A stretch of 64,000 nt of DNA from Verrucomicrobiia bacterium (lineage in GTDB: Bacteria > Verrucomicrobiota > Verrucomicrobiia > Palsa-1439), in assembly GCA_041495285.1 (NCBI GenBank), contig JBGQCJ010000007.1, positions 534 through 64,533 of the forward strand. The letters are read 5' to 3'. How positions within the stretch are numbered: the stretch's first letter is position 1; every line of letters begins with the position of its first letter. Shown here in pieces: positions 11,957 to 57,380 of this stretch. The position numbers and the translations under genes are program-made. The notes under the pieces are model-generated. The model searched no databases. It saw only the letters and a program-made list of their open reading frames with translations, and had not been told where the DNA came from.

Positions 11957-12058
11957 TTCTCCCCTTCACCTTTAGACCCATCGTCAGCACTTCGCGCTCC
12001 AAAATAGCATCTTCACGCCACTTTGTCGAACCGCGTGGCGGCTGCTTCCCTATGTTTT

Positions 12059-15493: not shown

Positions 15494-15495
15494 TT

Positions 15496-23030: not shown

Positions 23031-23053
23031 CGCCAGCCACATCCAAATTCTCC

Positions 23054-23115
23054 CGTAGGAGCGGCCTCCCGGCCGCGATCGGCCCGGCCCGGTCGCGGCG
23101 TGGACGCCGCTCCTA
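23054..23115. repeat. GC-rich imperfect palindromic element (GTAGGAGCGGC...GCCGCTCCTAC) immediately after the DUF1800 gene; a second copy sharing a 28-bp identical core lies at 48341
   Basis: CCGTAGGAGCGGCCTCCCGGCCGCGATC at 23052-23079 recurs exactly at 48339-48366. The outer arms GTAGGAGCGGC and GCCGCTCCTAC are reverse complements and end in CTACAA, like the 3080 hairpin. Confidence 0.75.
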
Positions 23116-23133
23116 CAACACCAGGACGAAGCC

Positions 23134-37777: not shown

Positions 37778-38698
37778 ATGCGCATCGGCTTCATGATGCC
37801 GTACGATCCCGAGCGGATCAAATTCGCCCAGCAACACGGCTTCGGCAGCGTCGAGTTGCAGACAAGTCCCGGCTGCGGCTTCTTTCCCGGTGACGTTGGC
37901 TGGAAAGAGAAAGCCGACAAGGTGAAACACGCCTTCGCTGCTGCCGGCCTGAGGATTTCTTGTCTCGCCTGCTTTTACGTCAATCACATGGACGACCGCG
38001 AAGCCGACCGGCACAAGGAACTCGTTCGCAACTCAATCCTGCTCGCCGAAAAAATGGGTGTCGGCGTCGTCGGTGGATTCTCCGGTCGGATCATGGGCGA
38101 AGATTTGCCGAAGAGCCTGCCGAAGTTCCGCGAGATTTGGAGCGAACACGCCAAGTTCGCCGACGATCACGGCATCCGCATCGCATTCGAGCATTGCCCA
38201 ATGGGTTGGTACAACACACCTGCCAGCGGCAACAACATGATCTGCACGCCCGGCATCTGGGAACGCGCCTTCAACGAAGTGCCCAGCGACGCGCTCGGCT
38301 TGGAATGGGATGCCAGCCACCTCGTCTGCATGTTCATTGACCCGGTCGCCAACCTCCGCCAGTTCGGCAAACGCGTCTATCACGTCCACGCCAAAGACGC
38401 GCACGTCCACCGCGACCTGCTCGCCAAATACGGCTTCTGGCATCCCGGCGTCACCGAACACTGTTTCCCCGGCCTCGGCGACACCAACTGGGCGCTCGTC
38501 GTGAAAGAACTCCTTCGCCAAGGCTACACCAACGACCTCAACATCGAAGGCTGGCACGACGCCGTCTTCCGCGACCACAAAGACAAACCGCCACCCGACG
38601 TCGCCCAAAACGTTTCACAGACCGCCTTCCGTGACCTCGAAGACGCCGGCCTCCTCCTCGCCCTCAAACACCTCTCCCCATTCGTCCCGGCAGAATAA
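37778..38698 (+). CDS. sugar phosphate isomerase/epimerase (xylose-isomerase-like TIM barrel)
   Basis: Start at MRIGFMMPYD. The AP_endonuc_2/TIM-barrel pattern is present, with a conserved Glu/His/Asp metal-ligand spacing (IAFEHCP, HVHAKDAH, LNIEGWHD). Confidence 0.8.
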   Translation: MRIGFMMPYDPERIKFAQQHGFGSVELQTSPGCGFFPGDVGWKEKADKVKHAFAAAGLRISCLACFYVNHMDDREADRHKELVRNSILLAEKMGVGVVGGFSGRIMGEDLPKSLPKFREIWSEHAKFADDHGIRIAFEHCPMGWYNTPASGNNMICTPGIWERAFNEVPSDALGLEWDASHLVCMFIDPVANLRQFGKRVYHVHAKDAHVHRDLLAKYGFWHPGVTEHCFPGLGDTNWALVVKELLRQGYTNDLNIEGWHDAVFRDHKDKPPPDVAQNVSQTAFRDLEDAGLLLALKHLSPFVPAE

Positions 38699-38951
38699 CG
38701 CTCTGGTAGGGCGCGACCACGTGGAACGTGGCAAGCCGCCAGGCGCGCATCTCCGTTGTGCGCTGGTCTCCCGACCGCGCACGAATGTCGGCGTGAAGCT
38801 GAAGGATTCTGAAAGGGTCTCCACCGCCAAAGGCCATAATTTTCTTGCATTCACGGCTTTCGTTTGTTCTACTTCCGCCGCTAGGAGAAACACGGCGAGG
38901 CTGGCGTCACGTTTGCGTTTCCTCCTCCGTGTCGCTCCAGAGTCGCAGGGC
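38647..38951. repeat. dispersed duplicated block, copy 1: 3-prime end of the isomerase gene, block B, and a conserved 120-bp block X containing ATAATTTTCTTGCATTC; it lies upstream of the first beta-helix/CTD gene
   Basis: 38647-38697 is about 90% identical to 48728-48778. 38750-38787 is similar to 48447-48486. 38833-38951 is about 85% identical to 48790-48908, including ATAATTTTCTTGCATTC and GGCGTCACGTTTGCGTTTCCTCCTCCGT...CTCCAGAGTCGCAGGGCA. Confidence 0.75.
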
Positions 38952-39571
38952 ACAGTGACGTTCAACGTATCACGCGGGTCGCACCAAAGAGCGGTTCATC
39001 AGCGCGGAACTGTACCGTCGCGCCCTTTCTTCGCCACGATCGTGTTAAGCCTTGCACTCGTGGGACTTGCAGCCAAGTCATTCATTCCGGGGATTGTTGG
39101 CGATTTCGCGTGCCGGGTAGCCGCCGATTCCGGTAGCGCGACCACCGACGACAACGACGATGACGGCAAACCATCACCGGACAATGATTCCACCACCTGC
39201 AAGTTTGGCGATCTTACGAAGGCGATCCTTGTCACAGTTGACTTGGCGTTACCGCACTTGCTGATGCCTGTCCATGCCTTGGCGGTGCCTGATACGACCA
39301 CGGAAGCAGTTTTGCCGGATCATTTTCTGCCCAATGCCGAAATCGGGCCGCCAGGCGGTATCGCTCTTGGAGCGACCACGGGGCCACGTGCGGACTCGCT
39401 GCCGGGCACCGTCGGCACCGTGATACGCTCCGGCTGTTCGCGACGTGCACCCCTTCCTCACGCAGCAGTAACCCTCTGTGCTGCCGGCACCTATCCCAAT
39501 GACGTTGTCACGAACTACTGCGACCTCGGCGACGTGAAAAACGGAAAAGATACTGGAAGGGGAACACAATC

Positions 39572-42500
39572 ATGAACTCAAGACCGATGATCTTCTGGAT
39601 TGGATTGATGACGGCTGTTCTCGTTGCGCCGATGGCGCAAGCGGTCACCAACTTTGTGACCACCACCGCCGACAGCGGGGCCGGCTCGTTGCGCGAGGCC
39701 ATCTCCAACGCGAACAGCACGGCAGCGCTGGACTTCATTCACTTCAACATTTCGGGTACCGGGCCGTTTACCATCACCCCGGCCACCGCGCTGCCGACCA
39801 TCACCAATTCGGTGGTCATTGACGGTTACACACAGTCCGGCGCGAGTCAGAACACGTTGACGAATGGCGACGACGCGGTTCTGAAAATTGTGGTGCTCGG
39901 AACGCTGAATACGGATACTACCAACACCACGATCCGCGGGCTGGCGATCAAACAGATTCGCTTGGGCAATGAAGGCCCGTTGGGCGGCCACGTCGTCGAA
40001 GGAAACTTCATCGGACTCGATGCCACGGGCACGAACGACCTGGACGGAGGCGTCTTATCGGTCAACACTCCCAATAATCGAATTGGCGGCACGACGCCGG
40101 CGGCGCGCAATATTATCTCGGGTCACGGCACCCCTGTCAGCACGGCCGTCGGCATTGAGATGGCGGGACCGTTCGCCACGAACAATCTGATTCAAGGCAA
40201 CTTCATCGGCACGGACCGAACGGGCACCCTCGCCATCCCCAACACAGATCGCACCATTGTGTGCAATTCGTTCACCAAGAACAACACGATTGGCGGCACG
40301 AACAGCGGCGCGCGCAATGTCATCTCCGGCAACTCCGATCGCGGGATCGTGCTGGACGGCACCAACAACGTCGCGCAGGGCAATTTCATCGGCGTCGACG
40401 TGACCGGCGTGAATCCCTTGGGCAATACTCGCAGCGGTGTCGAGATTACCGGCTCCAACAATGTCTGCGGCGGGTTGGCCGCTGGTGCGGGAAATATCAT
40501 TGCTTATAACGGGGTGGGCGGAACGTCCAGCAATGGCGTTGAAGTCCAAAGCGGAGTGAAGTTCTATGTCATCCTCTCCAATTCGATCTACGACAACGCG
40601 GGTCTGGGGATCGACTTGTTTCCGCAAGGAGTCGTCAACTTGGGGTTTCCGGTCATCACGTCGGCCAGCAACTTGGTTGCGGGTACCGTCATCAAGGGAA
40701 CGTACACGCCCAGCGTCACCTCCCGCATCGAATTTTTTTCCAATCCTGACTGCGATTCCTCGGGCTTTGGCGAAGGCAAGACGTTGGTGATCTCGACCAA
40801 CCTCCTCGCCGACGCCGGCGGCAATTTCACCGTCACGTTGCCGACGATTCCGCCCGGTCTGTTCATGACCGCGACCGGGGGCGGCACTTCAGAATTTTGC
40901 CAGTGTCGGATGGTCGTCTTTGCCGGCAAGACGAATAGTTGGACCAACAGCGTCAGTGGCAACTGGAACAATGGCACCAACTGGTCGCTAGGCGGTCCGC
41001 CGTACATTTTGCTGGAGCAAGTCTTGATCACCAATGCGGCCAGCAAGACCGTCACCAACGACGGTGCGTTCCCCAGCACCATGAGCATCAGCAATCTCAC
41101 GATCAGCGCCCCGGGTGGGGCGGTCAACACGTTGTTGGTCAACGCCGGCACCAATACGCCATTGCGCATCGTCAACGCCTGCATCATTTCCAACGGCGGC
41201 GCGCTCGTGGTGACAAATTCGATCTGGCAGGTGGACGGGTTCGGCAGTATCTCCAACATCATCAACGGCAGCGCCACCGTGTTGGCCGGTTCCCGTTTGG
41301 TCTCCACACCCACCTACGTCGGCAGCGCTGCCGGCGCCAGTGGCACGCTCACCATCGCGGGCGGCAGCAATAGCGTGTTCGGCACACTCAGCCTCGGCTC
41401 GATCGCCAACGGGACCGGCACTGTCTGGGTGACCGACGGGAAATTGTTCCCGCCGTTGCTGCGCGTTGGGCAGTTCGGTTTCGGCCAGATGATTACTTCC
41501 AATGGCCTCGTGCAAAGCGGGGGCACGGTTTCATTTATCGGTTCGCAACCCGGCTCGCGCGGTCAGGTCACGGTAGCCGGTGGCACGAATATTTTTCCGT
41601 CGCTGACCATCGGCGAAATGAGCGGCGCGACCGGCTCCGTGTTAGTGAGCGACGGGCTGCTGCAAGTCAACGGCGACGTCCTGCATAGCCGCGGCACCTT
41701 CACCGTCGCCGGGGGCAACGCGAATCTCTTGGGAGAGTTTGACAATCGTCCGAGCAACATCGTGTGGATCACCGGCGGGCAAATGGCGGTGACTAACGGC
41801 AACATGTTCCCTGGACAGATCGTGGTTAGCAATGGCACGTTGCTGGCACGCGACCTGTTTCTCGGTAACTCTGTCGGTATCGCCATTCTGAGGGTTGACG
41901 GCGGAGTCGTCGCGCTGCCGAAAAGTTTCAACGGTCTGATTGTCGGTAACGGTTCCATCACCGGCAGTGTATGGCAAACCGGCGGGCAGATCATTCTGAC
42001 CAACACGACCCTGTCCATCGGTGGCCTGTTCGGTTCCGCAGTCGGCACCGTGACCGGCTCCAACGGCACGTTGCTGGCCAGCAACGTGTTTGTCGCGGCC
42101 ATCTCGAGCGGGCGCGGCACGTTCAACATTGCCGGCAGCACCAATCACGTCTACGCCAACCTGATTCTCGGCGACGAGTCCTGCATCGGCACCGGCATCG
42201 TCAACATGACCAGCGGCCAGCTCTTCGTGACCAACGCTGCCGGCAATGCCACCCTCGACGTTCGCAGCGGCACGCTCGCTATCAGCGGTGGTCTGTTGCA
42301 AGCCGACAAGATTATCATCACCAATCCCTGCGCACACTTCGTCAACAGCGGCGGCGCAGTCATTTACAACACCGCCGTGTTGCCGCCGAACGGCGACGCC
42401 GATGGTGACGGCATTCCCAACGGTTACGAGATCAGCCACGGCCTGAACGCGCTTGATCCCGCAAACGCGAATCAGGACACTGACGGCGATGGTCTGACCG

Positions 42501-42796
42501 ATTTGCAGGAGTACCTCGCCGGCACCGACCCGACCAACAGCGCGTCTGCATTTCGGGTCACGTCGATCGTCCGAACGAACAGCAACATCCGCATCACGTG
42601 GTCAACGGCCGGTGGTCACACCAATCGCGTGCTGATTGCAACGCCAGTGCCCGGCGGCAGCTTCACGAATGAGTTCAGCAATCTTAGCTCCTTCATTATC
42701 CTCCCCGGCTCGGGCGATACCAGCACCAACTACACTCACATTGGCGGCGCGACCAACTCCCCGTCGAACTACTACCGGATCCGTTTGATTCCATAG
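39572..42796 (+). CDS. secreted adhesin-like protein (1074 aa): N-terminal right-handed parallel beta-helix, PATR-like beta-strand repeats, TSP3-like repeats and the shared C-terminal domain
   Basis: Signal peptide MNSRPMIFWIGLMTAVLVAPMAQA. The N-terminus VTNFVTTTADSGAGSLREAISNANSTAALDFIHFNISGTGPFTITPATALPTITNSVVIDGYTQ is the classic beta-helix CASH-type start. Repeated (GTLTIAGGxNxV / GxGQMxxSNGxV)-like units follow. DADGDGIPNGYE and DTDGDGLTDLQEYLAGTDP repeats are present. Ends ...TSTNYTHIGGATNSPSNYYRIRLIP*. Confidence 0.85.
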   Translation: MNSRPMIFWIGLMTAVLVAPMAQAVTNFVTTTADSGAGSLREAISNANSTAALDFIHFNISGTGPFTITPATALPTITNSVVIDGYTQSGASQNTLTNGDDAVLKIVVLGTLNTDTTNTTIRGLAIKQIRLGNEGPLGGHVVEGNFIGLDATGTNDLDGGVLSVNTPNNRIGGTTPAARNIISGHGTPVSTAVGIEMAGPFATNNLIQGNFIGTDRTGTLAIPNTDRTIVCNSFTKNNTIGGTNSGARNVISGNSDRGIVLDGTNNVAQGNFIGVDVTGVNPLGNTRSGVEITGSNNVCGGLAAGAGNIIAYNGVGGTSSNGVEVQSGVKFYVILSNSIYDNAGLGIDLFPQGVVNLGFPVITSASNLVAGTVIKGTYTPSVTSRIEFFSNPDCDSSGFGEGKTLVISTNLLADAGGNFTVTLPTIPPGLFMTATGGGTSEFCQCRMVVFAGKTNSWTNSVSGNWNNGTNWSLGGPPYILLEQVLITNAASKTVTNDGAFPSTMSISNLTISAPGGAVNTLLVNAGTNTPLRIVNACIISNGGALVVTNSIWQVDGFGSISNIINGSATVLAGSRLVSTPTYVGSAAGASGTLTIAGGSNSVFGTLSLGSIANGTGTVWVTDGKLFPPLLRVGQFGFGQMITSNGLVQSGGTVSFIGSQPGSRGQVTVAGGTNIFPSLTIGEMSGATGSVLVSDGLLQVNGDVLHSRGTFTVAGGNANLLGEFDNRPSNIVWITGGQMAVTNGNMFPGQIVVSNGTLLARDLFLGNSVGIAILRVDGGVVALPKSFNGLIVGNGSITGSVWQTGGQIILTNTTLSIGGLFGSAVGTVTGSNGTLLASNVFVAAISSGRGTFNIAGSTNHVYANLILGDESCIGTGIVNMTSGQLFVTNAAGNATLDVRSGTLAISGGLLQADKIIITNPCAHFVNSGGAVIYNTAVLPPNGDADGDGIPNGYEISHGLNALDPANANQDTDGDGLTDLQEYLAGTDPTNSASAFRVTSIVRTNSNIRITWSTAGGHTNRVLIATPVPGGSFTNEFSNLSSFIILPGSGDTSTNYTHIGGATNSPSNYYRIRLIP

Positions 42797-42806
42797 GGAA
42801 CTGACA

Positions 42807-45125
42807 ATGAAGACATACCACATGATTGCAGCGGCAATCTTACTGGGCGCGATTCATCTGGACGAAGTCGAGGCGCAGAACAATAGTTGGACGAACATCA
42901 ACGCCGGCAAGTGGGAGACGAACGGCAACTGGTCGCTCGGCGTCGCGCCGGCGAGCACGCAATCCGGTACGTTCATCACGAATGCCTTCAGCAAGACGGT
43001 GACGATTGATTCAATCACGACCAACTTCCCCGGCACGATGACCATCAGCAATCTGACGGTGTCGGCGCCGTCGGTGCCCACCTCGTTCAACAGGCTGTCT
43101 CTGGATAACTCCGGCCTTGCGACGCCGCTGCGCATTCTCAATTTTCTCAAGGTGGACAGCGCGGGCACGTTGGTGGTGGGCACCAACTCGGTCCTGCAAG
43201 TGGACAATCCGACGTTCACCGGCTTTGTGAGCATTGATGGCGGCGGTTTTGTGATCGTCGTGGACGGCGGCACGCTCGCGGCCACCAATCAGACGACGTC
43301 CCTCGGTGGCCTCACCACGGGCGATATCCTTGTGAACAACGGCAACCTGAGGACCTTGAATCTTTCGATGGGCAACTTTCCCGGCGCAGTAGGCACATTG
43401 AGACTGCAAGCCGGTTTGGTCGAAGTGAAGTCCGTCTTGTCGCTCGGAGCCTCCGGAAGTTCGACCGCGGCGGTGTGGGTGACCGGCGGACAGCTCGTGG
43501 CGACCAACGCCACTACAACGATCGGGAATAGCAGTTCGGGCCGGTTGACCGTGTCGAACGGCACCGTGAATGCCGGAACTGTTACGGTGGCGCAAACGCC
43601 CGGCACAGCCGGGACGTTGACGGTGGCCGGCGGCACGTTCACGGCCGAGCGGCTCGTGGCGACGAACAGCAGCGCCACGATTCAGTTTCCCGCAGGCACG
43701 ATGACGCTGCGCGGCGCGGAGATCGGCAACAGTCTGGCGTTTGAGATTGGCGGAGCCGGGCAGACGGCGGTATTGAACCTTGTCGCCGGTACGAACCGCT
43801 TTGCCTTCAGCCTCTATGTCGGATCCTCGGCGAATGCCACCGGCACGTTGTGGATGACGGGCGGTCAATTGGTCGTCACCAACGCCATCACTTCCATCGG
43901 CGAGTCCGGTGTTGGACAGATGACGCTTTCTAACGGCATCTGGCTGGCAAATGGAGTCGTCGTTGGGAGAAATGCAGGTTCACAGGGGACGCTGACGATT
44001 GCGGGAGGTACGAATACCGTCATCAACGGTGGGGTGAGTGTCGGCCTCGGTTCGAATGCGGTCGGCGCGGTCTGGATTGTCGGCAACCAGGCGCGACTGG
44101 CGACAGTTACCACAAACGTTTCCAGCTCCATTTCACTCGGGGGCAACGACGGCACCGGGCAACTGAGCATTTCAAACGGCAGTGTCGAGACGTTGAGCTT
44201 GCTCATCGGGAGCGGCCTTCGGTCGCGCGGCACCGTAACGGTCGCGGGCGGTGAGTTGATCGTGCACGGCGCTTTGCCTGTTGGCCACCAACAAACCTCT
44301 ACCGGCACTGTTTGGATCACCAGCGGACAGCTCATCGTCACCAACGATTCCACTTTCGTTGGTAACCTTGGCAAAGGGCAAATGACCGTCTCCAACGGCA
44401 CGTGGCGGGCAACCGACGTGACTGTCGGCGGCGCGTCAGGCTCGCAAGGCACACTGGCCATCGCCGGCGGCATCAGCAGTGTGTACTCGAACCTAACGGT
44501 CGGTAATTTCGCCTGCAGCGCGACCGGCATCGTCAACGTCACCGCCGGCCAACTTCGCGTGACGAACAACGCCGCGAATGCCGTGCTCGAGGTGCGCAGC
44601 GGCACGTTGACCCAAAGCGGCGGCACGCTGGACGTTGACCGGCTCATCATCACGAACGACTGTGGCCGCTTCGTGCATACCGGCGGAACGCTGATCACCG
44701 GACTGATTACTCTCAGCCCGTTTGGTGATGCGGATGGCGATGGAATACCGAATGACTGGGAACTCGCGGCCGGGCTTGATCCATTCAATCCGAATGATGC
44801 CGGCTTGGACGAGGACGGCGATGGATTGACGAATCTGCAAGAGTACTTCACCGACACCGACCCGCATGATGCGACCAAGTACCTGCACATCACCTCGATT
44901 GTTCGCACCAACAACGATATTCGTATCACGTGGCCGACGGAAGAGTTCTATGGCCTCGGCATATTTTACCGGGTGCTATCGGGGACAAATCTGCTGACTG
45001 GTGTCACTAACAATTTGAGTCCAAATATCTTGGGCCCATTTGGCAGCTCGACCAATTACCTCGACGTCGGCGGCGCTACGAATTCCCCTCGTCGGTTCTA
45101 TCGTGTCCTCGGCAACATTGACTAG
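42807..45125 (+). CDS. secreted paralog (772 aa) with PATR-like beta-strand repeats, TSP3-like repeats and the shared C-terminal domain
   Basis: Signal peptide MKTYHMIAAAILLGAIHLDEVEA. Tandem ~40-aa units are present (TGTLWMTGGQLVVTNAITSIGESGVGQMTLSNGIWLANGVVVGRNAGSQGTLTIAGGTNTV...). DADGDGIPNDWE and DEDGDGLTNLQEYFTDTDP repeats follow. Ends ...SSTNYLDVGGATNSPRRFYRVLGNID*. It starts 11 nt after the previous gene. Confidence 0.85.
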   Translation: MKTYHMIAAAILLGAIHLDEVEAQNNSWTNINAGKWETNGNWSLGVAPASTQSGTFITNAFSKTVTIDSITTNFPGTMTISNLTVSAPSVPTSFNRLSLDNSGLATPLRILNFLKVDSAGTLVVGTNSVLQVDNPTFTGFVSIDGGGFVIVVDGGTLAATNQTTSLGGLTTGDILVNNGNLRTLNLSMGNFPGAVGTLRLQAGLVEVKSVLSLGASGSSTAAVWVTGGQLVATNATTTIGNSSSGRLTVSNGTVNAGTVTVAQTPGTAGTLTVAGGTFTAERLVATNSSATIQFPAGTMTLRGAEIGNSLAFEIGGAGQTAVLNLVAGTNRFAFSLYVGSSANATGTLWMTGGQLVVTNAITSIGESGVGQMTLSNGIWLANGVVVGRNAGSQGTLTIAGGTNTVINGGVSVGLGSNAVGAVWIVGNQARLATVTTNVSSSISLGGNDGTGQLSISNGSVETLSLLIGSGLRSRGTVTVAGGELIVHGALPVGHQQTSTGTVWITSGQLIVTNDSTFVGNLGKGQMTVSNGTWRATDVTVGGASGSQGTLAIAGGISSVYSNLTVGNFACSATGIVNVTAGQLRVTNNAANAVLEVRSGTLTQSGGTLDVDRLIITNDCGRFVHTGGTLITGLITLSPFGDADGDGIPNDWELAAGLDPFNPNDAGLDEDGDGLTNLQEYFTDTDPHDATKYLHITSIVRTNNDIRITWPTEEFYGLGIFYRVLSGTNLLTGVTNNLSPNILGPFGSSTNYLDVGGATNSPRRFYRVLGNID

Positions 45126-48100
45126 GTGAGAAAGGAAACTATGAAAAATATTTCGTATCGGCTCTTGTTGGTTGGAATGCTACTCTTTGGCAGCAACGTC
45201 GAAGGTGTGCTGACGACGAACAGTTGGTTTCTCTTCGGCGGGAAGTGGGAAGATGGCACAAAGTGGTCGGCGGGCTCCCCGTCCCTCTTAAATGCTGTAA
45301 ACACTATCACCAACGATTTGTCGGCCATCACCGTCACCATCGACACCACCACGGTGACTCAGCACGTGATGGCCCTTACCAGCCTGACCGTCAGCAACCT
45401 CTTTCTCGGGCGCGGCTCGGTCATTACGCATACGCTGTTCATGAATAACGCCAACAATACCCCCGGCAACATCGGCCTGACCATCCTGAGCAACTTCACT
45501 ATCAACGCCACCGGCATCCTCTCGATCACCAACTCCGACTTGCGGGTCACGAATCCGACCGGCGGGTTATTCATCAACGGCACCGCGTTGCACAACTTCG
45601 GAACGATCACCTGCACCAATCTGTCCGTTGGCCGAACCGGCGTGGGCACGATGACTGTCTCCAACGGCACATTGATCACTCGCAACCTGAATGTGGCCGA
45701 GCTTTCCGGCTCGCAAGGCACGTTCAACATCGCAGGCGGGTCGGTCACGTCTCGCAATATGCTCGTGGCGCTTTCGGGCCTGACCGGCACGGTGTGGATG
45801 ACCGGCGGCCAACTCACGGTCTCTAACGAATCCACAGCTTTGGGCGACCCCGGCGTCGGCCAAATGACGGTTTCCAACGGCACATGGGCGGCGAGCATCG
45901 TCTCGGTCCGGCAAGGCACACTGACCATCGCCGGTGGGACTCACAAGTTTTATAGCCTGGCCATTGCTTCAGGCGCCAGCACACTCACCGCAGCGGTGTG
46001 GATGGTTGGTGGCAACGTCGCGATCACCAACACGACAACGGCTTTCCCCGGTTTCACCAATGGTACCGCTGTGGGCTTGAATGGTTTCGGACAAATGACG
46101 ATGTCCAACGGCACATTCTTGGGGCGCGACATGTACGTCGGCACCAACACCGGCTCGGTCGGCACATTCACGATGGCCGGCGGCACCAACACGCTGACGT
46201 CGCTTCTCAGCGTGGGCGGACTGCCCGGCGCGACTGGCGCGGTCTGGATAACCGGCGGGCGGTTCGCTGTCACCAACAACAACACGCAGATCGGGGTCAG
46301 TGGTGTGGGGCAGATTACGCTCTCCAACGGCACGTGGCTGGCGCGGGATGTGTACGTCGGCGTCAATGCCAGCTCGCGTGGCACACTCACCTATGCCGGC
46401 GGCACCAACATCCTGTCGTCGGTGCTCCAACTCGGCATCAACAGCGGCGTGACCGGCACATTATGGATGACCGATGGACGACTTGTCGTGACCAACGTTG
46501 CATCCAGCGTTATCATCGGCTCCAGTGGCGTTGGTCAAATGGCTGTGTCCAATGGCGACTGGTTGGCCCGTGAAGTTTTCATCGCGACCAACGCCGGCTC
46601 GGCCGGCACGTTGAACATCGCCGGCGGCAGCGGCCTCGTGACTTCCAACATGATCCTCGGCAACTTTGCCTGCTCTTCGACCCCCATCGTCAACATGACC
46701 GCCGGCAGCTTGATTGTGTCCAACCCCAACCCGGTCATTGCCGCGAAACTGGAAGTGCGCAGCGGCACGTTCACTCACAGCGGCGGAGATTTGGTCCTGC
46801 GCAATCTCGTGATCACGAACGCTTGCGCCCGCTTTCTGCACACCGGTGGCACGCTAAAGATCACGGGAGTACTTATCCTCGATCCCAATATGGACGCCGA
46901 TGGCGACGGGATCCCCAACAACTACGAACTGTTCAGCCCCGTTCTGTTCCAATTGAACCCGAACGATGCCGGCGAAGATCCCGACGGCGACGGGTTCACG
47001 AACTTGGAGGAATACCTGAACGGCACCGATCCGACCGTAAACGATTTCCACATCACCGCCATCGCGCGGGAAGGAAACGATATTCGGATCACGTGGGCGA
47101 CGGTCGGCGGCACGACGAATCGCGTGCTCGTGTCCACGGGCGCGGCGGGCGGATCATTCACGAACAACTTCACCAACTTGAGTCCTCGCATCTTCGTTGC
47201 CGGCACCGGTGCAACCAGCACCAATTACCTCGACAGCGGCGGCGCGACCAACACGCCGGCGCGCTACTACCGCGTGCGGCGGAGTCTCGAGCCAGGCGGG
47301 GCGCGTTTCCTCTTCGACGCCGGCCACGCCCAGAGCGCCGGCAACGCGGATTGGGTCGTCGATGCCGACGTTCGCAACATCGTCTGGAACAGCTCGGGCA
47401 CGTTCACGACCGGTGGCAGCGACTCCAATGCGCAGCGCATCCCGACGCCGCCGGCCAGCGGAATCATTTCCAGCACGCCGGAGACGTATTGGGACGGCGG
47501 AATCTCCGCGTGGGCGGTGGACCTCGTCAAGCGCGGCCATTCCGTCGAGACACTGCCGGCAGGCGTGCAGTTCACCTACGGCACGGCCAACGCGCAAGAC
47601 TTGAGCAACAACTACGATGTCGTGGTCGTGGACGAGCCGAACATTCTGTTCACGCTCGTCGAGAAACAGGCGCTGCTCAGCTTCGTTACAAACGGCGGCA
47701 GTCTGTTCATGATTTCCGACCACACCAGCTCGGATCGAAATAGCGATGGCGTAGACTCGCCTGAAATCTGGATGGATTTTCTTACGAACAATCTGGTCGC
47801 GAACAATCCGTTCGGCATCGTGTTTCCGTCCTCGAGCGCGAGCGGGACAAACACGTTCAATCACAATATCGTCGGTGACCCGATCCTGAACGGCCCGGTC
47901 GGGCTGGCGACGAACACCGCCTATTTCGCCGGCAACCGATTCCAGATTGACCACACGAAGAATCCAACCGTGATCAGCCACATGTGGTTCGGCACCGCCG
48001 TCGATTCCAACAACCTGTGCGCGGTGGCCTCGTTGCGCTACGGCAATGGCCGCGTCGTGGTGGTCGGCGACAGTTCGCCGATCGAAGACGGTACGGGCGA

Positions 48101-48203
48101 CCCGGGCGATGGACTGTTCAACGGCTACACCGGCGACCTCGGCGAGACCAATCGCATTTGGATACTCAACGCCAGCGAATGGCTTGCCGCGCCCTTTCAG
48201 TGA
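45126..48203 (+). CDS. secreted paralog (1025 aa): PATR-like repeats, TSP3-like repeats and a complete copy of the shared CTD, followed by an extra ~300-aa C-terminal domain (class-I glutamine-amidotransferase/ThuA-like by inference)
   Basis: Signal peptide (MKNISYRLLLVGMLLFGSNVEG). The CTD is internal here (...ATSTNYLDSGGATNTPARYYRVRRSLEP at about aa 700) and is followed by ARFLFDAGHAQSAGNADWVVDAD...YDVVVVDEPNILFTLVEKQALLSFVTNGGSLFMISDHTS.... It starts 1 nt after the previous stop. Confidence 0.8.
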   Translation: MRKETMKNISYRLLLVGMLLFGSNVEGVLTTNSWFLFGGKWEDGTKWSAGSPSLLNAVNTITNDLSAITVTIDTTTVTQHVMALTSLTVSNLFLGRGSVITHTLFMNNANNTPGNIGLTILSNFTINATGILSITNSDLRVTNPTGGLFINGTALHNFGTITCTNLSVGRTGVGTMTVSNGTLITRNLNVAELSGSQGTFNIAGGSVTSRNMLVALSGLTGTVWMTGGQLTVSNESTALGDPGVGQMTVSNGTWAASIVSVRQGTLTIAGGTHKFYSLAIASGASTLTAAVWMVGGNVAITNTTTAFPGFTNGTAVGLNGFGQMTMSNGTFLGRDMYVGTNTGSVGTFTMAGGTNTLTSLLSVGGLPGATGAVWITGGRFAVTNNNTQIGVSGVGQITLSNGTWLARDVYVGVNASSRGTLTYAGGTNILSSVLQLGINSGVTGTLWMTDGRLVVTNVASSVIIGSSGVGQMAVSNGDWLAREVFIATNAGSAGTLNIAGGSGLVTSNMILGNFACSSTPIVNMTAGSLIVSNPNPVIAAKLEVRSGTFTHSGGDLVLRNLVITNACARFLHTGGTLKITGVLILDPNMDADGDGIPNNYELFSPVLFQLNPNDAGEDPDGDGFTNLEEYLNGTDPTVNDFHITAIAREGNDIRITWATVGGTTNRVLVSTGAAGGSFTNNFTNLSPRIFVAGTGATSTNYLDSGGATNTPARYYRVRRSLEPGGARFLFDAGHAQSAGNADWVVDADVRNIVWNSSGTFTTGGSDSNAQRIPTPPASGIISSTPETYWDGGISAWAVDLVKRGHSVETLPAGVQFTYGTANAQDLSNNYDVVVVDEPNILFTLVEKQALLSFVTNGGSLFMISDHTSSDRNSDGVDSPEIWMDFLTNNLVANNPFGIVFPSSSASGTNTFNHNIVGDPILNGPVGLATNTAYFAGNRFQIDHTKNPTVISHMWFGTAVDSNNLCAVASLRYGNGRVVVVGDSSPIEDGTGDPGDGLFNGYTGDLGETNRIWILNASEWLAAPFQ

Positions 48204-49545: not shown

Positions 49546-51303
49546 ATGGAGGATCAGATGAGACTTCTCATTCGCAGTACACTGACCATTGCTTTAATTG
49601 CGCTGGCGATGAGCCTACCGGGCCTAACGGCCAACGCCCAACCCGCCCAGCAAGCCTATGTCAAAGCCTCCCACACCGCAATGGGCGGGGGGCGCCTGTT
49701 CGGTTACTCGGTGGCGGTATCGAGCGACACGATGGTGATCGGGGCGGAATCGGAGAACAGCAACGCCACCGGCGTGAACGGCGACCAGGCCAACAACAAC
49801 GCACTCGGCTCCGGCGCGGCTTACGTATTCGTGCGCAGTGGAACCAACTGGAGCCAACAGGCCTATCTCAAGGCCTCCAACACCGATGCGGGTGACCACT
49901 TCGGCTGGTCGGTGGCGATGTCAGACGACACGATGGTGATCGGCGCGCCTTATGAGTCCAGCAACGCCACCGGCGTGAACGGCGTCCAGACCAACAACGG
50001 CGCTGCTTTCTTCTCTGGCGCGGTCTACGTCTTCGTGCGGAGCGGTACGAACTGGAGCCAGCAGGCCTATCTGAAGGCCTCCAACACCGATGCGAATGAC
50101 CACTTCGGCTACTCGGTGGCGGTGTCGGGCGACACGGTAGTCGTCGGGGCGGACCAGGAGGCGAGCAACGCCACCGGCGTGAACGGCGTCCAGACCAACA
50201 ACAGCGCCGGATTCTCCGGTGCGGCCTACGTCTTCGTGCGCAGTGGAACGAACTGGAGCCAACAGGCCTATCTCAAGGCCTCCAACACCGGGCTCAGTGA
50301 CCAGTTCGGCTGGTCGGTGGCGGTGTCAGGCGACACGGTAGTCGTCGGGGCGTACACGGAGTCGAGCAACGCCACCGGTGTGAATGGCGTCCAGACCAAC
50401 AATCTCGCGAGCAACTCCGGCGCGGCCTACGTGTTCGTGCGCGGCGGAACCAACTGGAGCCAGCAGGCCTATCTCAAGGCCTCTAACACCGAGTCGGACG
50501 ACAGGTTCGGTACTTCGGTGGCGGTGTCAGGCGACACGGTGGTGGTGGGCGCGTTTCAGGAGGACAGCAACGCCACCGGCGTGAACGGCGTCCAGACCAA
50601 CAACAGCCTTACCAACCCCGGCGCAGCGTATGTGTTCGTGAGGAGCGGGACGAGCTGGAGCCAGCAGGCGTATCTCAAGGCCTCCAACACCGATGGGGGT
50701 GACTGGTTCGGCATTTCCGTGGCGGTGTCAGGTGACACGGTGGTCGTTGGGGCGTACGGTGAGGACAGCAACGCCACCGGCGTGAACGGCGTCCAGACCA
50801 ACAACGTTGCAAACGGCTCCGGCTCCGGCGCGGCCTATGTGTTCGTGCGGAGCGGTACGAGCTGGAGCCAGCAGGCGTATCTCAAGGCCTCCAACACCGG
50901 TGTGGGTGACGAGTTCGGCTACTCGGTGGCGGTGTCAGGCGACACGGTGGTGGTCGGGGCCATAGATGAGGCCAGCAACGCCACCGGCGTGAACGGCAAC
51001 CAGAGCGACAACAGCGCAACCAGCTCCGGCGCGGCCTACGTCTTCACCGGCTTAGTCACCTCAACACCTCTCAGCGTCAGCAGCCTTGCGCGCGTTGGCA
51101 ACTGCATTGGCGTAACGTGGAACACCGCACCCGGCATGACCAATGAGTTGCAGGCCACCGCGTGTGGTGGGGGTTACAGCACAAACAGCTTCACCGCCAT
51201 CTTCAGCGTCACAAATGCCGTTGGTTCGGTGACCAACTATCTCGACTGTGGCTGCGTAACCAATTCCCCCTCGCGCTTCTATCGGGTTCGGCTGGTGCAG
51301 TAA
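49546..51303 (+). CDS. secreted 7-bladed FG-GAP-like beta-propeller protein with the shared C-terminal domain (585 aa)
   Basis: Signal peptide MRLLIRSTLTIALIALAMSLPGLTANA. Seven ~67-aa repeats of the form QQAYLKASNTxxxDxFGxSVAVSGDTVVVGAxxExSNATGVNGVQTNNSxxxSGAAYVFVRSGTNWS. Ends ...VTNYLDCGCVTNSPSRFYRVRLVQ*. Confidence 0.8.
   Translation: MEDQMRLLIRSTLTIALIALAMSLPGLTANAQPAQQAYVKASHTAMGGGRLFGYSVAVSSDTMVIGAESENSNATGVNGDQANNNALGSGAAYVFVRSGTNWSQQAYLKASNTDAGDHFGWSVAMSDDTMVIGAPYESSNATGVNGVQTNNGAAFFSGAVYVFVRSGTNWSQQAYLKASNTDANDHFGYSVAVSGDTVVVGADQEASNATGVNGVQTNNSAGFSGAAYVFVRSGTNWSQQAYLKASNTGLSDQFGWSVAVSGDTVVVGAYTESSNATGVNGVQTNNLASNSGAAYVFVRGGTNWSQQAYLKASNTESDDRFGTSVAVSGDTVVVGAFQEDSNATGVNGVQTNNSLTNPGAAYVFVRSGTSWSQQAYLKASNTDGGDWFGISVAVSGDTVVVGAYGEDSNATGVNGVQTNNVANGSGSGAAYVFVRSGTSWSQQAYLKASNTGVGDEFGYSVAVSGDTVVVGAIDEASNATGVNGNQSDNSATSSGAAYVFTGLVTSTPLSVSSLARVGNCIGVTWNTAPGMTNELQATACGGGYSTNSFTAIFSVTNAVGSVTNYLDCGCVTNSPSRFYRVRLVQ
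49648..51070 (+). repeat. seven near-identical tandem DNA repeats of ~201-204 bp encoding the FG-GAP-like blades
   Basis: GGCCTATCTCAAGGCCTCCAACACCG... and GGTGTCAGGCGACACGGTGGT... recur with >85% nucleotide identity at ~200-bp spacing. Confidence 0.8.
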
Positions 51304-52277: not shown

Positions 52278-54134
52278 TTGCTTTTGGGTATGGCGAGAGA
52301 GACGAACGATTCGGCAACCGGCCAGTCCAACTGGGATGTGACGCGGCGACTGTTGGCGCTGACGTGGCGTTACCGGGCGGGCTGCGTCAAGGTGTTCGTT
52401 TATCAGTTGGTGTTGCTCGTGATGGGGCTTACCGTGCTCGGGTTGACCGGCCTCGGCATTGATTTCATTCGCCACCAGTTGGACCCGACCGCCCCCGCGC
52501 CATACTGGCCGTTTCATCTGGTGCCGCCGGCGGATTGGTCGCCGATGAGGGTCATCACCGTGATAGCGGGCGTGATGTTATTGCTGGCGCTGGTGCGGGC
52601 GTGGTTGAATTATCTTTACGCCGTCAAGAGCGCGGAGTTGATCGAGCAAGACATCGTCGTCGAGTTGCGCTCGCAAGTGTACGACAAACTCCAGCGGCTG
52701 AGCTTTCAGTTCTTCGACGCCAACGCCAGCGGTTCGATCATCAACCGCATCACCGGCGACTCGCGCGCCGTCGCCAACTTTGTCAACAACGCCATGCTAC
52801 AGGGCATCATTATGTTTCTGTCGCTGGCCGTGTACCTCAGTTACATGCTGGCCATTCACGCGAAACTCACGCTCGCGTGTCTCGCCACGACACCATTCCT
52901 GTGGTTGACCGCGACGATTTTCTCGCGGCTTGTCCAACCGGCCTACATGCGCAACCGGGAGTTGTCGGACCGGATGGTGCTCACGCTCGCCGAAACCGTG
53001 CAAGGCATGCAGACAATCAAAGGCTTCGCGCGCGAGCGTGAACAGTTCGAACTGTTTCAATCCGAGAACCACGCGGTACGCGATCAGCAGCAATCCATTT
53101 TCCGCCGCGTCAGTGTGTTCGTGCCGTCCATCGGTTTCTTCACGCAGGTCAATATCTTCGTGCTGCTGCTCTACGGCGGCCATCTCGTCATTAATGGAAC
53201 ATTGCCACTCGGCACCGGCATGATTGTGTTCGCGGGACTGCTCCAACAATTCTCCGGACAAATCTCCAACGTCGCGCAGATCGCCAACACCGTGCAGCAG
53301 AGTCTGACCGGTGCGCGCCGCGTGTTCGAGGTGCTCGACACGCCGGTCACCATCCTGAACACGACGAATCCAGCGCCGTTGCGTCGCGCCAAAGGTGCCG
53401 TGCGATTCGAAGGCGTCACCTTCGCCTACAACTCGTCCGAGCCGGTACTGCAAGACATCACGTTCGAAACTCGTCCCGGCGAGTGTGTGGCAATTCTCGG
53501 TGCGACCGGTGCTGGTAAGACGACGTTGCTGAGTTTGATTCCGCGCTTTTACGACCCGACGCGAGGTCGCGTGTTGGTGGACGGCACGGACGTGCGCGCG
53601 CTCGATCTCGACGATCTGCGTCGCAACATCGGCTTGGTGTTTCAGGAAAGTTTCTTTTTCAGCAACACCGTCGCGGCGAACATCGCGTTCGGCCATCCCA
53701 ACGCGACTCGCGAGGAGATCGAACGCGCCGCGAAGATTGCTTGCGCGCACGAGTTCATCACTGAGTTGCCGCAAGGGTACGACACGGTGCTGGGTGAAGC
53801 CGGCAAGGATTTGTCGGGCGGTCAACGGCAGCGGCTCGCCATCGCGCGCGCGATTCTGCTCGATCCGGCCATTCTGCTGCTCGATGATCCGACCGCGTCG
53901 GTTGACCCGCAAACGGAAACGGAGATTTTGCAGGCGATTGAGAATGCGATGCGTGGGCGCACGACGTTGATCATCGCGCACCGGGTGAGCACCGCGCGCC
54001 GCGCCAACCGGGTCATCGTGCTGGAGCAGGGGCGCATCGTGCAGGTCGGCACGCACGCGGAGCTGATTCGCATCAACGGCCCGTACCGGCGTGCGGCGGA
54101 GCTGCAGTTTTCAGAACCGGAGCCCGTGGCATGA
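52278..54134 (+). CDS. ABC exporter, fused permease/ATPase subunit (MsbA-like), first of a heterodimeric pair
   Basis: Six-TM domain followed by an NBD: Walker A GATGAGKTT, signature LSGGQRQRLAIARA, Walker B ILLLDDPTASVD, H-loop IAHR. Confidence 0.85.
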   Translation: MLLGMARETNDSATGQSNWDVTRRLLALTWRYRAGCVKVFVYQLVLLVMGLTVLGLTGLGIDFIRHQLDPTAPAPYWPFHLVPPADWSPMRVITVIAGVMLLLALVRAWLNYLYAVKSAELIEQDIVVELRSQVYDKLQRLSFQFFDANASGSIINRITGDSRAVANFVNNAMLQGIIMFLSLAVYLSYMLAIHAKLTLACLATTPFLWLTATIFSRLVQPAYMRNRELSDRMVLTLAETVQGMQTIKGFAREREQFELFQSENHAVRDQQQSIFRRVSVFVPSIGFFTQVNIFVLLLYGGHLVINGTLPLGTGMIVFAGLLQQFSGQISNVAQIANTVQQSLTGARRVFEVLDTPVTILNTTNPAPLRRAKGAVRFEGVTFAYNSSEPVLQDITFETRPGECVAILGATGAGKTTLLSLIPRFYDPTRGRVLVDGTDVRALDLDDLRRNIGLVFQESFFFSNTVAANIAFGHPNATREEIERAAKIACAHEFITELPQGYDTVLGEAGKDLSGGQRQRLAIARAILLDPAILLLDDPTASVDPQTETEILQAIENAMRGRTTLIIAHRVSTARRANRVIVLEQGRIVQVGTHAELIRINGPYRRAAELQFSEPEPVA

Positions 54135-55924
54135 AGAAGGTTTCCATCACTCATGTCCAACACGACCCCGAGTGGGCGAGGGAACGGCCGCTGGAGTTCG
54201 GGTTGATCTGGCGGATGTTCGGCTACACGCGTCCGTATGCGCGCAAACGCAACTGGCTCTTCGCGCTGGTGATCTTGCGCTCGATTCAGTTGCCGGTGCT
54301 GGCGTGGATGATTGGCGCAATCATTAACGGGCCGATTGCCCGGCACGGCACAAGTGGAGTGGTTTGGGGTGCGGTCGGATTCTTGGCGTTCGCGTCCATC
54401 ACGCAATTCTGTTTTCACTTCCGGCAGCGGCTGGCGCTGGAACTCGGCGAGGCGGTCGTGCACGACATGCGCCGCGATATTTTCCAGCATTTGCTGCGCA
54501 TGCCGATGAGTTACTACAACCGCACCAAGATCGGCCGCATCATCAGCCGGTTCACGTCCGACGCCGAGGCCGTGCGGGCCGGCGTGCAGGACGTGTTCTT
54601 CATCACGGCGGTGCAAGGCGGGCAGATGATTGTGTCCGCGTTGCTGATGTTGTGGTACGACCGGGTGTTGTTTCTGGTCGTGCTCGCCATGGCGCCGGTC
54701 TTGGTCGCGCTGAACTACCATTTCCGGCGAACGCTCAGCCGCGCGCAGCGAGTCATCCAGGAAAGTTGGAGTCGCGTGACGGCGACGATCGCGGAATCGG
54801 TCAGCGGCATTCGCGTGACACAGGGATTTGTGCGTCAGGAAGTCAATGCCGGTCTGTTTGCCGACCTGATCGCCGACCACGCGCGCAACAACCTCGGCAG
54901 CGCGCGCGCTTCGGGCGTGTTTCTGCCGATCCTCGATTTGAACAGCCAGGTATTCACCGCGGCGTTGCTCGTGCTCGGTGGTTACCGGGTATTGCAACCC
55001 GCCATCGCCATGCCGATCGGCAATCTGATTCAGTTCTTCTTTCTCGCGAACATTTTCTTCAGCTCGATCCAACCCATCGGCCAGCAGTTTAACCAAGCGC
55101 TCACGGCGATGGCCGGTGCGGAACGAGTGTTTCGCACGCTCGACTCCAAGCCCGATTGGGAAGAACCGCCGACCGCCGTGGAGTTGCCGCGCATTCAAGG
55201 CCGCGTCGAATTCCGGGAAGTCTCATTCGGTTATGGCACGGACCGGCCGGCGTTGCGCGAGATGAGTTTCGTCGTCGAACCGGGGCAGACCGTTGCGCTC
55301 GTCGGTCACACCGGCAGCGGGAAAAGTTCCATCGTCAATCTCATTACGAAGTTTTACCTGCCGAACGAGGGCGCGGTGTTGATTGACGGTCGCGGCACGC
55401 GCTCGATCAAGGGCGATTCGCTGCACCGGCAAATGGGCATCGTGAGCCAGCAAAATTTCCTCTTCACCGGCACGGTCATGAACAACATCCGGGTTGGGCG
55501 GCCTAATGCGACGGACGAGGAAGTCACGGATGCGGTACGCAAGCTCGACTTCCTCGATATCATCGGTTCGTTGTCCGCGGGTTTCGCAACGCAAGTTGGC
55601 GAACGCGGCGCGAATCTCTCGCTTGGACAACGGCAACTCATTTGTTTCGCGCGCGCGATGATCGCTGACCCGCGAATTCTCATTCTCGACGAAGCGACGA
55701 GTTCGGTGGACTCGGTGACCGAAGCGCGCGTGCAGCGGGCACTGGTCGCGTTGGTGCGCGGGCGAACGAGTTTTGTCGTGGCGCACCGGCTCAGCACGAT
55801 TCGGCATGCCGACCTTGTGCTGGTGCTGGATCATGGCCGGATCGTCGAACGCGGCACCCATGTGCAACTGTTGCGGGCCGACGGCGTGTACGCGCAGCTT
55901 TACCGGCAGTTTGTGAGCGCGTGA
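54131..55924 (+). CDS. ABC exporter, fused permease/ATPase subunit, second of the heterodimeric pair
   Basis: Overlaps the upstream stop (ATGA). Walker A GHTGSGKSS, signature LSLGQRQLICFARA, Walker B ILILDEATSSVD, H-loop VAHR. Confidence 0.85.
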   Translation: MKKVSITHVQHDPEWARERPLEFGLIWRMFGYTRPYARKRNWLFALVILRSIQLPVLAWMIGAIINGPIARHGTSGVVWGAVGFLAFASITQFCFHFRQRLALELGEAVVHDMRRDIFQHLLRMPMSYYNRTKIGRIISRFTSDAEAVRAGVQDVFFITAVQGGQMIVSALLMLWYDRVLFLVVLAMAPVLVALNYHFRRTLSRAQRVIQESWSRVTATIAESVSGIRVTQGFVRQEVNAGLFADLIADHARNNLGSARASGVFLPILDLNSQVFTAALLVLGGYRVLQPAIAMPIGNLIQFFFLANIFFSSIQPIGQQFNQALTAMAGAERVFRTLDSKPDWEEPPTAVELPRIQGRVEFREVSFGYGTDRPALREMSFVVEPGQTVALVGHTGSGKSSIVNLITKFYLPNEGAVLIDGRGTRSIKGDSLHRQMGIVSQQNFLFTGTVMNNIRVGRPNATDEEVTDAVRKLDFLDIIGSLSAGFATQVGERGANLSLGQRQLICFARAMIADPRILILDEATSSVDSVTEARVQRALVALVRGRTSFVVAHRLSTIRHADLVLVLDHGRIVERGTHVQLLRADGVYAQLYRQFVSA

Positions 55925-56066: not shown

Positions 56067-57380
56067 ATGGGGAAGTTGCCGGGGCCTTGGGTTCGCTGGA
56101 TTGTATGCATCTTGCTGGCGGTGCTGTTTCTAACGGAGACGAAAGCCGAGGAGTTTTCTACCACCAACCGAGACTGCCTCGCGCATTTCTGGGTCGCGGC
56201 TGAGGGCGGTAAGAGACCGGTCACGGTTGTCTCCTTTGGTGATTCGATGGCCGACTCCTACCAGTCGGTCACTTATTCTTTGATTAACTCTCTGGCCGGT
56301 CGTTTGGGTGTTGCCGGGTATTCTCTGAACAATTACGCCAACGCAACCGAGTATCGCCTGACCAATGGTGCACAGTACGTCGTAGGTCCAACACAATTCT
56401 GGTTCACAGACCATTATCGGCTGCCAAGCGGCGGCGGATTGTGGTGGGAAGCGCAGAATTCTCCCGGCGGCGTTTACTCGGATGCGGTGGGTGTGTTCTG
56501 GGTCTCGCAACCGCAAGGCGGCTGGTTCACGCTGTCCGTCTCGACCGCAGGTCAGGCGTGGACGCCGGTCGTAATGCTCAGCGGCAACGGGAGTACACCG
56601 GAAGGTCATTTCGCAAGAGTCTTCTTGGCGCCTGACTTCCATAGGGTCCGCGTGGATGGCGTTTCGGGTATCAACTACATCATCGGACCCCAACTGCTGT
56701 CACAGAAGACGGGCGGTGTGCACGTTGTGTTCATGGACAAGGGCGGAATTGGTCTGGACTCGGTGACAAACATCCCGATTTCCATACGCCAGCCGATTCT
56801 GGCGGCGTTGAACCCCGACCTGATCGTCTGGCACATGAAGGAAGACGGTTCTGTGGCGACCAGCAACCGGATGCTGGAATGCGAGAACTGGTGGTCCAAC
56901 GCCGCGCCGGCCTGTGATATCGCCTACATTGGCACACCCTATACGGCGTATGATACCAATACCACGACTACGATCGATCAGAACCGGCTCGTGCGGAACA
57001 TCGCTGTTACCAAACACCGGACGTATGAGGATCTGATGCAACCCAGCGTGAGTTACAATTGGCTGTATGCCCAAGGATACATGGTGGACGCAGTCCACCT
57101 CAATGTCACCGGAGGGAAGTATCTGGCTAACATCATGTGGAACGATTTGGGGTTCTTTGCCCTCAATGTTCCTCGGACATTGACCCTGAAGTTCTCGGGG
57201 CAGAAACTGACAGCCGAATACCCCACGGTCACCGGGGTTTACTACGCGCTGGAGATGTCCACAAATTGGGTTAACTGGTTGCCGATCGTCAGCGCACCGG
57301 GCAGCGGCCAGAAGTTGTCTACCAACGTCCCGGCGAGTTCTCGGAATGCTTTCTTCCGACTCAGGCTCTCACCCAACTGA
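56067..57380 (+). CDS. secreted SGNH/GDSL-family hydrolase with a C-terminal domain related to the shared CTD (437 aa)
   Basis: Signal peptide MGKLPGPWVRWIVCILLAVLFLTETKA. GDS motif block VTVVSFGDSMADSY. The C-terminal ~80 aa (TLKFSGQKLTAEYPTVTGVYYALEMSTNWVNWLPIVSAPGSGQKLSTNVPASSRNAFFRLRLSPN*) matches the family tail pattern (..IxW......G..........TN......FFRLRL). Confidence 0.75.
   Translation: MGKLPGPWVRWIVCILLAVLFLTETKAEEFSTTNRDCLAHFWVAAEGGKRPVTVVSFGDSMADSYQSVTYSLINSLAGRLGVAGYSLNNYANATEYRLTNGAQYVVGPTQFWFTDHYRLPSGGGLWWEAQNSPGGVYSDAVGVFWVSQPQGGWFTLSVSTAGQAWTPVVMLSGNGSTPEGHFARVFLAPDFHRVRVDGVSGINYIIGPQLLSQKTGGVHVVFMDKGGIGLDSVTNIPISIRQPILAALNPDLIVWHMKEDGSVATSNRMLECENWWSNAAPACDIAYIGTPYTAYDTNTTTTIDQNRLVRNIAVTKHRTYEDLMQPSVSYNWLYAQGYMVDAVHLNVTGGKYLANIMWNDLGFFALNVPRTLTLKFSGQKLTAEYPTVTGVYYALEMSTNWVNWLPIVSAPGSGQKLSTNVPASSRNAFFRLRLSPN

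Follow-up and report, generated by a model that had tools for sequence, protein, structure and literature searches.

The closest described analogue of the element treated here is the type A C-terminal domain (CTD) of the type IX secretion system (T9SS) of Bacteroidota (TIGR04183 or Por_Secre_tail), an immunoglobulin (Ig)-like sandwich of about 80 amino acids (aa) that sits at the extreme C-terminus and occurs in many paralogues per genome. The element itself, a C-terminal tail of the same general build and placement, was found in a 64,000-nucleotide stretch of contig JBGQCJ010000007.1 of a Verrucomicrobiia bacterium (the window), where it forms the 3' end of the gene at 39572-42796. Both the T9SS CTD and the tail are borne by Sec-exported, functionally unrelated secreted or surface proteins, and the possible working of the tail is best likened to that of the CTD. 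The two differ in host, as the tail belongs to Verrucomicrobiia and not to Bacteroidota, and no cleavage, sortase or translocon is known for the tail. The T9SS CTD models TIGR04183, TIGR04131 and Por_Secre_tail gave no match to the tail at E <= 1 in NCBIfam and Pfam scans, and no T9SS machinery (PorU, PorV, SprA and the like) was seen among the window open reading frames (ORFs) scanned with Pfam.

Pilins of the chaperone-usher pathway share with the tail an Ig-like sandwich that lacks the seventh (G) strand. Pilins are, however, whole small subunits, while the tail is an appendage on large enzymes and its module also stands in tandem in cis. Pilins carry an N-terminal donor extension and have chaperone and usher genes as neighbours, whereas the tail proteins of the window have no such extension, and no such neighbouring genes were found in the window or across 80 loci. 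PATR and T5SS/PEP-CTERM-associated repeat passengers elsewhere bear a C-terminal sorting or anchoring device. Some passengers of the tail are these same repeats (NCBIfam/Pfam), with the tail at the position of the sorting device, but the tail differs from the PEP-CTERM and autotransporter devices in being a soluble sandwich with no transmembrane helix, PEP motif or beta-barrel.

The interval 42380-42796 is the 3' end of ORF 39572-42796 (+), which encodes 1074 aa and begins with the signal-peptide-like N-terminus MNSRPMIFWIGLMTAVLVAPMAQA. Within it, two TSP3 repeats are followed by a C-terminal region of about 80 residues, SAFRVTSIVRTNSNIRITWSTAGGHTNRVLIATPVPGGSFTNEFSNLSSFIILPGSGDTSTNYTHIGGATNSPSNYYRIRLIP, and the stop codon at 42794-42796. 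The first-pass annotation of this DNA had given the whole interval for the shared domain at the protein end; the C-terminal placement stands, while the sandwich proper occupies about 42551-42793 and the TSP3 linker takes up the part ahead of it, from 42380 to about 42538. TSP3_bac is the only Pfam match in the ORF, and the linker closes with the conserved LAGTDPTNS. No Pfam or NCBIfam model matched the region after the TSP3 repeats in scans of the tail alone (E <= 1). The features of the gene are listed below, with strand positions numbered on a 138-residue AlphaFold2 (AF2) model unless stated otherwise; HMM stands for hidden Markov model and pLDDT for the predicted local distance difference test.

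39572-42796, + strand: whole gene of a 1074-aa Sec-exported protein with a beta-helix-like passenger, TSP3 repeats and a C-terminal sandwich (ORF list, translation)
42395-42538, + strand: two bacterial TSP3 repeats (calcium-binding, DxDxDG) with a short helix after each, forming the linker ahead of the sandwich (Pfam PF18884 TSP3_bac, E = 2e-9, two stretches)
42551-42793, + strand: shared tail of about 80 aa, a predicted beta-sandwich like fibronectin type III (FN3) without its G-strand (tail HMM E = 3e-37; hhalign to canonical FN3 95.3%; AF2 pLDDT 90-91)
42554-42577, + strand: predicted strand A, RVTSIVRT (AF2 DSSP strand 59-66; A-B antiparallel covariation ladder)
42584-42610, + strand: predicted strand B, NIRITWSTA, with a nearly invariant Trp (AF2 strand 69-77; aligned to FN3 'ISISW'/'LTW', the B-strand by FN3 consensus; B-E ladder)
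42617-42649, + strand: predicted strand C, HTNRVLIATPV (AF2 strand 80-90; C-C' and C-F covariation ladders)
42659-42682, + strand: predicted strand C', SFTNEFSN (AF2 strand 94-101; C-C' hairpin covariation)
42695-42703, + strand: predicted short extra strand, IIL, specific to the 'long' subfamily (AF2 strand 106-108; only 2 residues in an 86-aa model)
42716-42739, + strand: predicted strand E, DTSTNYTH, with the TNY.D motif (AF2 strand 113-120; aligned to 3mpc 'TNYTD', the E-strand by FN3 consensus)
42770-42790, + strand: predicted strand F, YYRIRLI, last strand of domain and protein, with a nearly invariant Y (AF2 strand 131-137, pLDDT about 93; aligned to FN3 'YYYVV'/'YYYQL')
42782-42796, + strand: C-terminal tetrapeptide R-L-I-P (family consensus R-L-V-P-COOH) and stop codon (terminal versus internal residue frequencies)

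The ancestry of the tail was traced by profile comparison. Against the PDB sequences, the tail profile matched 3mpc, an 'Fn3-like protein', at E = 4e-4, with the tail segments ITW, Y.V, TNYTD and FYRV aligned to LTW, SYNV, TNYTD and YYYVV, which are the B, C, E and F strands of 3mpc by FN3 consensus. The 3mpc chain (103 aa) extends about 28 residues past the aligned stretch. Alignment of 293 family domains with 59 canonical FN3 repeats, taken from the giant database proteins P0044 and P0114, gave an hhalign probability of 95.3% at E = 2e-8. Columns 8-77 of the 80 in the family matched columns 6-68 of the 87 in FN3, covering strands A to F, while the last 19 FN3 columns, which hold the FG loop and the G-strand, stayed unpaired. 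The tail profile also matches the FN3 arrays themselves, though weakly (29 stretches in the 5597 aa of P0044 and 14 in the 3246 aa of P0114), and SSRSSAVSATT comes after YYYQL in these canonical arrays, at the expected position of the G-strand. Pfam fn3 (PF00041) did not match the tail even at E <= 1. By its sequence, the tail is thus classed as an FN3-derived variant without a G-strand and not as a member of PF00041, since the Pfam fn3 model does not detect it and one of the defining strands is missing.

With FN3 (PF00041; 3mpc and the matching domain of 5g56) the tail shares the B-strand Trp, the C-strand Y.V.Y, the E-strand T.Y.D and the F-strand YY.V. It differs in the loss of the FG loop and the G-strand, which in FN3 (A, B, C, C', E, F, G) is paired to F, and in lying nearly always at the very C-terminus, where it ends in a fixed R-L-V-P. 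The 'long' subfamily of the tail further departs from FN3 by the short extra strand and a 7-residue insertion, GSGDTST, which hhalign places directly after that strand, between C' and E. Foldseek gave no canonical FN3 structure as a significant neighbour of the tail models. The first-pass annotation had proposed an FN3-like C-terminal domain with the Trp in strand B and YYRVR in strand F, and this is borne out by the 3mpc match and by hhalign; the strand mapping is correct because A to F align and the FG loop and G-strand are left unmatched. Its observation that the G-strand is missing also holds, with 19 FN3 columns lacking a counterpart and a chain that ends four residues after the F-strand motif. 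A circular permutation in which the N-terminal strand serves as G was rejected, as hhalign puts this strand at the FN3 A-strand position; the AF2 model also speaks against it, since strands A and B are joined there by a turn of only two residues.

The tail is a large family. In a search of 1.84 billion representatives that used no word index, its profile matched 20,173 cluster representatives at E <= 1e-3 and 3,081 at E <= 1e-10, while a second homologue search with a word index gave few further homologues. A chance motif or an annotation artefact is as good as ruled out by HMM E-values down to 3e-37 in the window and by the 20,173 representatives. Judged by sequence searches, the module is undescribed, having no match in the Pfam and NCBIfam copies searched and a weak match to canonical FN3 in the PDB copy searched. 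No family member with a solved structure was found when the tail profile and a broader profile were run against the PDB sequences, and the source annotations of the relatives name the passenger domains and leave the tail without a name.

Placement and ending were determined in a sample of 188 proteins, composed of the best 150 of the profile matches, 30 earlier homologues and the window ORFs. A copy lies at the extreme C-terminus in 185 of the 188. Exactly four residues follow the [FY]YR[VI] motif in 164 of 184 proteins, and in 109 these are RLVP, and the earlier remark that every family member stops shortly after YYRVR is correct and applies to the family at large. The [FY]YR[VI] core is equally conserved in terminal and internal copies, whereas the four positions after it differ: R at +1, L at +2, V at +3 and P at +4 occur in 86, 89, 72 and 81% of terminal copies against 23, 43, 22 and 12% of internal ones, respectively, a comparison partly confounded by subfamily, as terminal copies are mostly of the 'long' type. 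The difference persists inside proteins that hold both kinds of copy.

A scan of one genome per species gave 403 confirmed copies in Verrucomicrobiia genomes, several per genome, and 79 of the best 80 loci came from Verrucomicrobiota metagenome-assembled genomes, mostly labelled Verrucomicrobiia or Verrucomicrobiae. The family is specific to Verrucomicrobiia as far as sampled. One locus lies in a bin with the label Acidimicrobiales, probably because of an error in binning. The window itself comes from a JGI metagenome contig.

The proteins that carry it in soil and peat Verrucomicrobiia are extracellular and unrelated in function. Among 70 cargo proteins, 51 Pfam families were identified, mostly carbohydrate-active enzymes (CAZymes) and adhesin-type repeats; they include glycoside hydrolase (GH) families GH28 and GH30, apiosidase-like proteins, pectate and rhamnogalacturonan lyases, CBM6, PKD, PATR, RCC1 and DUF11. 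In the window, the cargo comprises amylase-like, GH57, FG-GAP and beta-helix repeat proteins. A signal peptide was flagged in 52 of 98 database relatives by a crude regular expression, many of these entries being fragments. Tail genes tend to cluster, with at least two tail ORFs within about 3 kb in 19 of 77 Verrucomicrobiia loci. What is firm in this account is the domain architecture, the FN3 relationship, the absent G-strand, the position at the C-terminus, the conservation peculiar to terminal copies and the varied cargo.

The fold of the tail was predicted with AF2. The model of 138 residues, which includes the linker and was built from an alignment of 32 sequences, reached a pLDDT of 91.5 and a predicted template modelling score (pTM) of 0.80, and the sandwich alone (86 aa) reached 90.4 and 0.80 with the same strands. 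In these models the tail is a compact sandwich of six to seven strands, every one of them supplied in cis. In a mean-field direct coupling analysis of 280 domains (effective number, Meff, 259), the antiparallel ladders that stood out most were C-C', B-E, C-F and A-B, with B-E the second strongest. These ladders agree with the FN3 sheets A-B-E and C'-C-F and lend them weak, independent support from sequence covariation. The two linker helices lie at residues 14-19 and 41-46 of the 138-aa model (pLDDT 90-96). The model suggests that the TSP3 linker packs rigidly against the sandwich, because linker residues 11-58 have a pLDDT of 90-96 and the whole 138-aa chain a pTM of 0.80. Covariation of the linker with an F edge that it would cover stayed at noise level (DPTN/F-strand pairs, z = 2.6-2.9, Meff 163).

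The missing strand had led the first-pass annotation to propose an incomplete fold that needs a donor strand. On this model, which we regard as improbable, a receptor, an outer-membrane component or another subunit would donate the G-strand in trans and the cargo would be docked in this way. The absence of the G-strand fits such a model, as do an F-strand that is the last element and reaches the penultimate residue, a terminal strand and tetrapeptide conserved more than the fold requires, and the lack of reliable covariation for strand A closing onto F, where the parallel A-F ladder of 0.45 was within noise. The isolated tail, however, is folded by AF2 with confidence into a compact sandwich, although AF2 probably would do so for a pilin too. 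A closed sandwich with all strands in cis, which the first-pass annotation had named as the outcome that would speak against donation, is thereby seen in part, as the strands of the AF2 models are all in cis. Small six-stranded sandwiches are in general stable alone; tendamistat is one.

Tandem copies weigh more directly against a donated strand. The same G-less unit stands internally and in tandem in four database proteins (P0032, P0033, P0036 and P0049) with a period of about 75-77 aa, where RFYRV is followed by a linker of about 7-10 residues, often proline-rich (e.g. ILAPVPAPPL), and then by the next A-strand (AITSIRV). Because the unit occurs in these settings, ending at the F-strand is a design of the family and not a truncation at the protein end, and the unit is therefore argued to fold on its own. 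From the predictions and the tandem copies together we infer that the fold would be autonomous. A donor was likewise sought: the mature N-termini of the eight window proteins with the module are unrelated, so they carry no pilin-like donor extension or conserved donor peptide. No chaperone, usher or Fimbrial-type genes were found in the window by Pfam scans or among the neighbours in the 80 loci, and no small neighbour recurred there. The donor-strand proposal is not supported, as nothing beyond the missing strand backs it, and the size of the family, its strict C-terminal placement and the invariant R-L-V-P end are more interesting than that question.

A stand-alone tag fits better than a broken fold, because the family is large and its module is found at the very end of extracellular proteins that are otherwise unrelated. 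By analogy with known C-terminal devices, the terminal module may well be an address or anchor tag common to Sec-exported enzymes and adhesins, a reading we favour with modest confidence on account of the strict C-terminal placement, the R-L-V-P constraint on terminal copies and the diverse exported cargo. The unit would be a self-sufficient FN3-derived sandwich that keeps A, B, C, C', E and F and has lost the FG loop and the G-strand, so that the FN3 F-strand, [FY]YR[VI]RL, becomes its last strand. It occurs in two settings, as an internal or tandem repeat and, much more frequently, as a specialised C-terminal module composed of the calcium-binding TSP3 linker, the sandwich and the almost invariant R-L-V-P-COOH. 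The cargo would be exported by Sec, after which a common partner would recognise the terminal module and either retain the cargo on the cell surface or pass it across the outer membrane. The likeliest recognition surface would be the free edge of the F-strand together with the terminal tetrapeptide. A more specific form, a cargo-tag system of soil Verrucomicrobiia's own in which the tag is a G-less FN3 sandwich behind a calcium-binding TSP3 linker, and its free F edge and R-L-V-P-COOH end dock by beta-strand augmentation on an outer-membrane or surface partner, appears quite improbable as a whole; if it were true, the tail would correspond in function to the T9SS CTD while working by the strand-complementation principle of pilins.

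Several results count against an address or anchor tag or lend weight to an ordinary module, either an FN3-type spacer or a carbohydrate- or cell-wall-binding domain, whose place at the end would be fortuitous and which would take no part in sorting or docking. The internal and tandem copies make clear that the unit is able to serve as a plain structural repeat, which also sets it apart from the T9SS CTD, for which we know of no use as an internal or tandem repeat. The FN3 ancestry is in keeping with a spacer, FN3 being a common one in bacterial CAZymes, and the cargo consists mostly of polysaccharide-active enzymes. Foldseek searches of the PDB, run with both models, yielded structural neighbours of which none was significant (best E = 1.7e-3 and 3e-2; TM no higher than about 0.5). 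They are Ig-like or FN3-like sandwiches of a generic kind, namely the de novo Ig DIG14, Ptr ToxA, EMMPRIN and the accessory beta-sandwiches of GH3 and GH29 enzymes. The accessory sandwiches among these weak neighbours are in keeping with an ordinary module. Furthermore, clustering of all ORFs within 3 kb at 80 Verrucomicrobiia loci gave no recurrent non-tail neighbour family, Pfam scans showed no candidate for export or anchoring machinery among the window genes, the literature searched held no relevant paper on the tail, its motif or a role in sorting, and the subfamily confounding noted above touches the terminal-specific conservation. A plain module is nevertheless rather unlikely, as nothing in the role of a spacer would explain why it closes 185 of 188 proteins, or why it stops exactly four residues after the motif with R-L-V-P. 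Enzymes, beta-helix adhesin-like proteins, FG-GAP and RCC1 repeats also all carry it alike.

The address or anchor tag would be carried by much of the window. Seven of its ORFs end with the module and an eighth (45126-48203) holds an internal copy, with tail HMM domain E-values from 3e-37 to 2e-12. All eight proteins have N-termini that look like signal peptides by eye. The seven tails stop 3-7 residues past the [FY][FY][RK][VIL] core, with the ends NYYRIRLIP, RFYRVLGNID, RFYRVRLVQ, KYYKVKVLP, RYYRVGIVPTP, RFYKIRCVNP and AFFRLRLSPN, each directly before the stop. Besides the copy of 39572-42796, the following are present:

44868-45122, + strand: tail of the next gene, ORF 42807-45125 (HMM E = 1e-27)
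46995-47288, + strand: internal TSP3 and long-type sandwich in ORF 45126-48203, aa 624-721, ending ARYYRVRRSLEPGG and followed by a DUF4350-like domain (HMM E = 9e-33)
51058-51300, + strand: tail of an FG-GAP repeat protein, ORF 49546-51303 (tail HMM)
57168-57377, + strand: divergent tail of ORF 56067-57380 (HMM E = 2e-12)
3203-3439, - strand: tail of a 2918-aa alpha-amylase-like protein, ORF 3200-11956 (tail HMM)
12062-12301, - strand: tail of ORF 12059-15607 (tail HMM)
15499-15729, - strand: tail (short type) of a GH57-like protein, ORF 15496-18669 (tail HMM)

The interval 39572-48203 (+) holds three consecutive genes whose products are beta-helix/PATR-like repeat proteins with signal peptides. 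The tail closes the first two, while in the third (45126-48203) the internal unit runs straight into a DUF4350/ABC_transp_aux-like domain. Upstream, the listed ORF 38631-39575 (+; 314 aa) has a low-complexity, non-protein-like translation and no Pfam match. It is probably spurious and non-coding, which would leave a gap of about 870 nt ahead of gene 39572-42796. At the other end of the window, 16-18669 resembles an alpha-glucan-related cluster. Its amylase-like ORF 16-1764 (+) lacks a tail, and the three minus-strand ORFs 3200-11956, 12059-15607 and 15496-18669 all carry one. The latter two overlap by about 110 nt as listed, and the start codon of 12059-15607 is probably further downstream.

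An adjoining DUF1800/DUF1501 gene pair occupies 21582-24438 (+). Two adjoining ABC exporter genes (ABC_membrane and ABC_tran) occur at 52278-55924 (+), between the tail genes 49546-51303 and 56067-57380, and no evidence links them to the tail. NCBIfam and Pfam scans of the tail also gave sub-threshold matches to Amuc_1099 and MtsD, which cover the TSP3 part. For NF042425, the 'Amuc_1099 family pilus-like system protein', these reached 33-42 bits against a cutoff of 50, at 42392-42600 and 44739-44933 (residues about 942-1003 and 645-709 of the respective ORFs), running from the TSP3 repeats into strands A/B. The NF042425 matches raise the question of whether Akkermansia Amuc_1099 may contain a related module.

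Verrucomicrobiia are major degraders of polysaccharides in soil and peat, and the export and display of their enzymes are poorly understood. A single C-terminal module that is easy to recognise is found on tens of thousands of their extracellular proteins and could serve as a ready predictor of the secreted and surface proteome in these organisms. A natural FN3 domain that works without its G-strand would be relevant to the evolution of the fold and to the engineering of minimal Ig-like scaffolds. For the biology of Verrucomicrobiia, the module points to a common partner through which these proteins may be exported or anchored.

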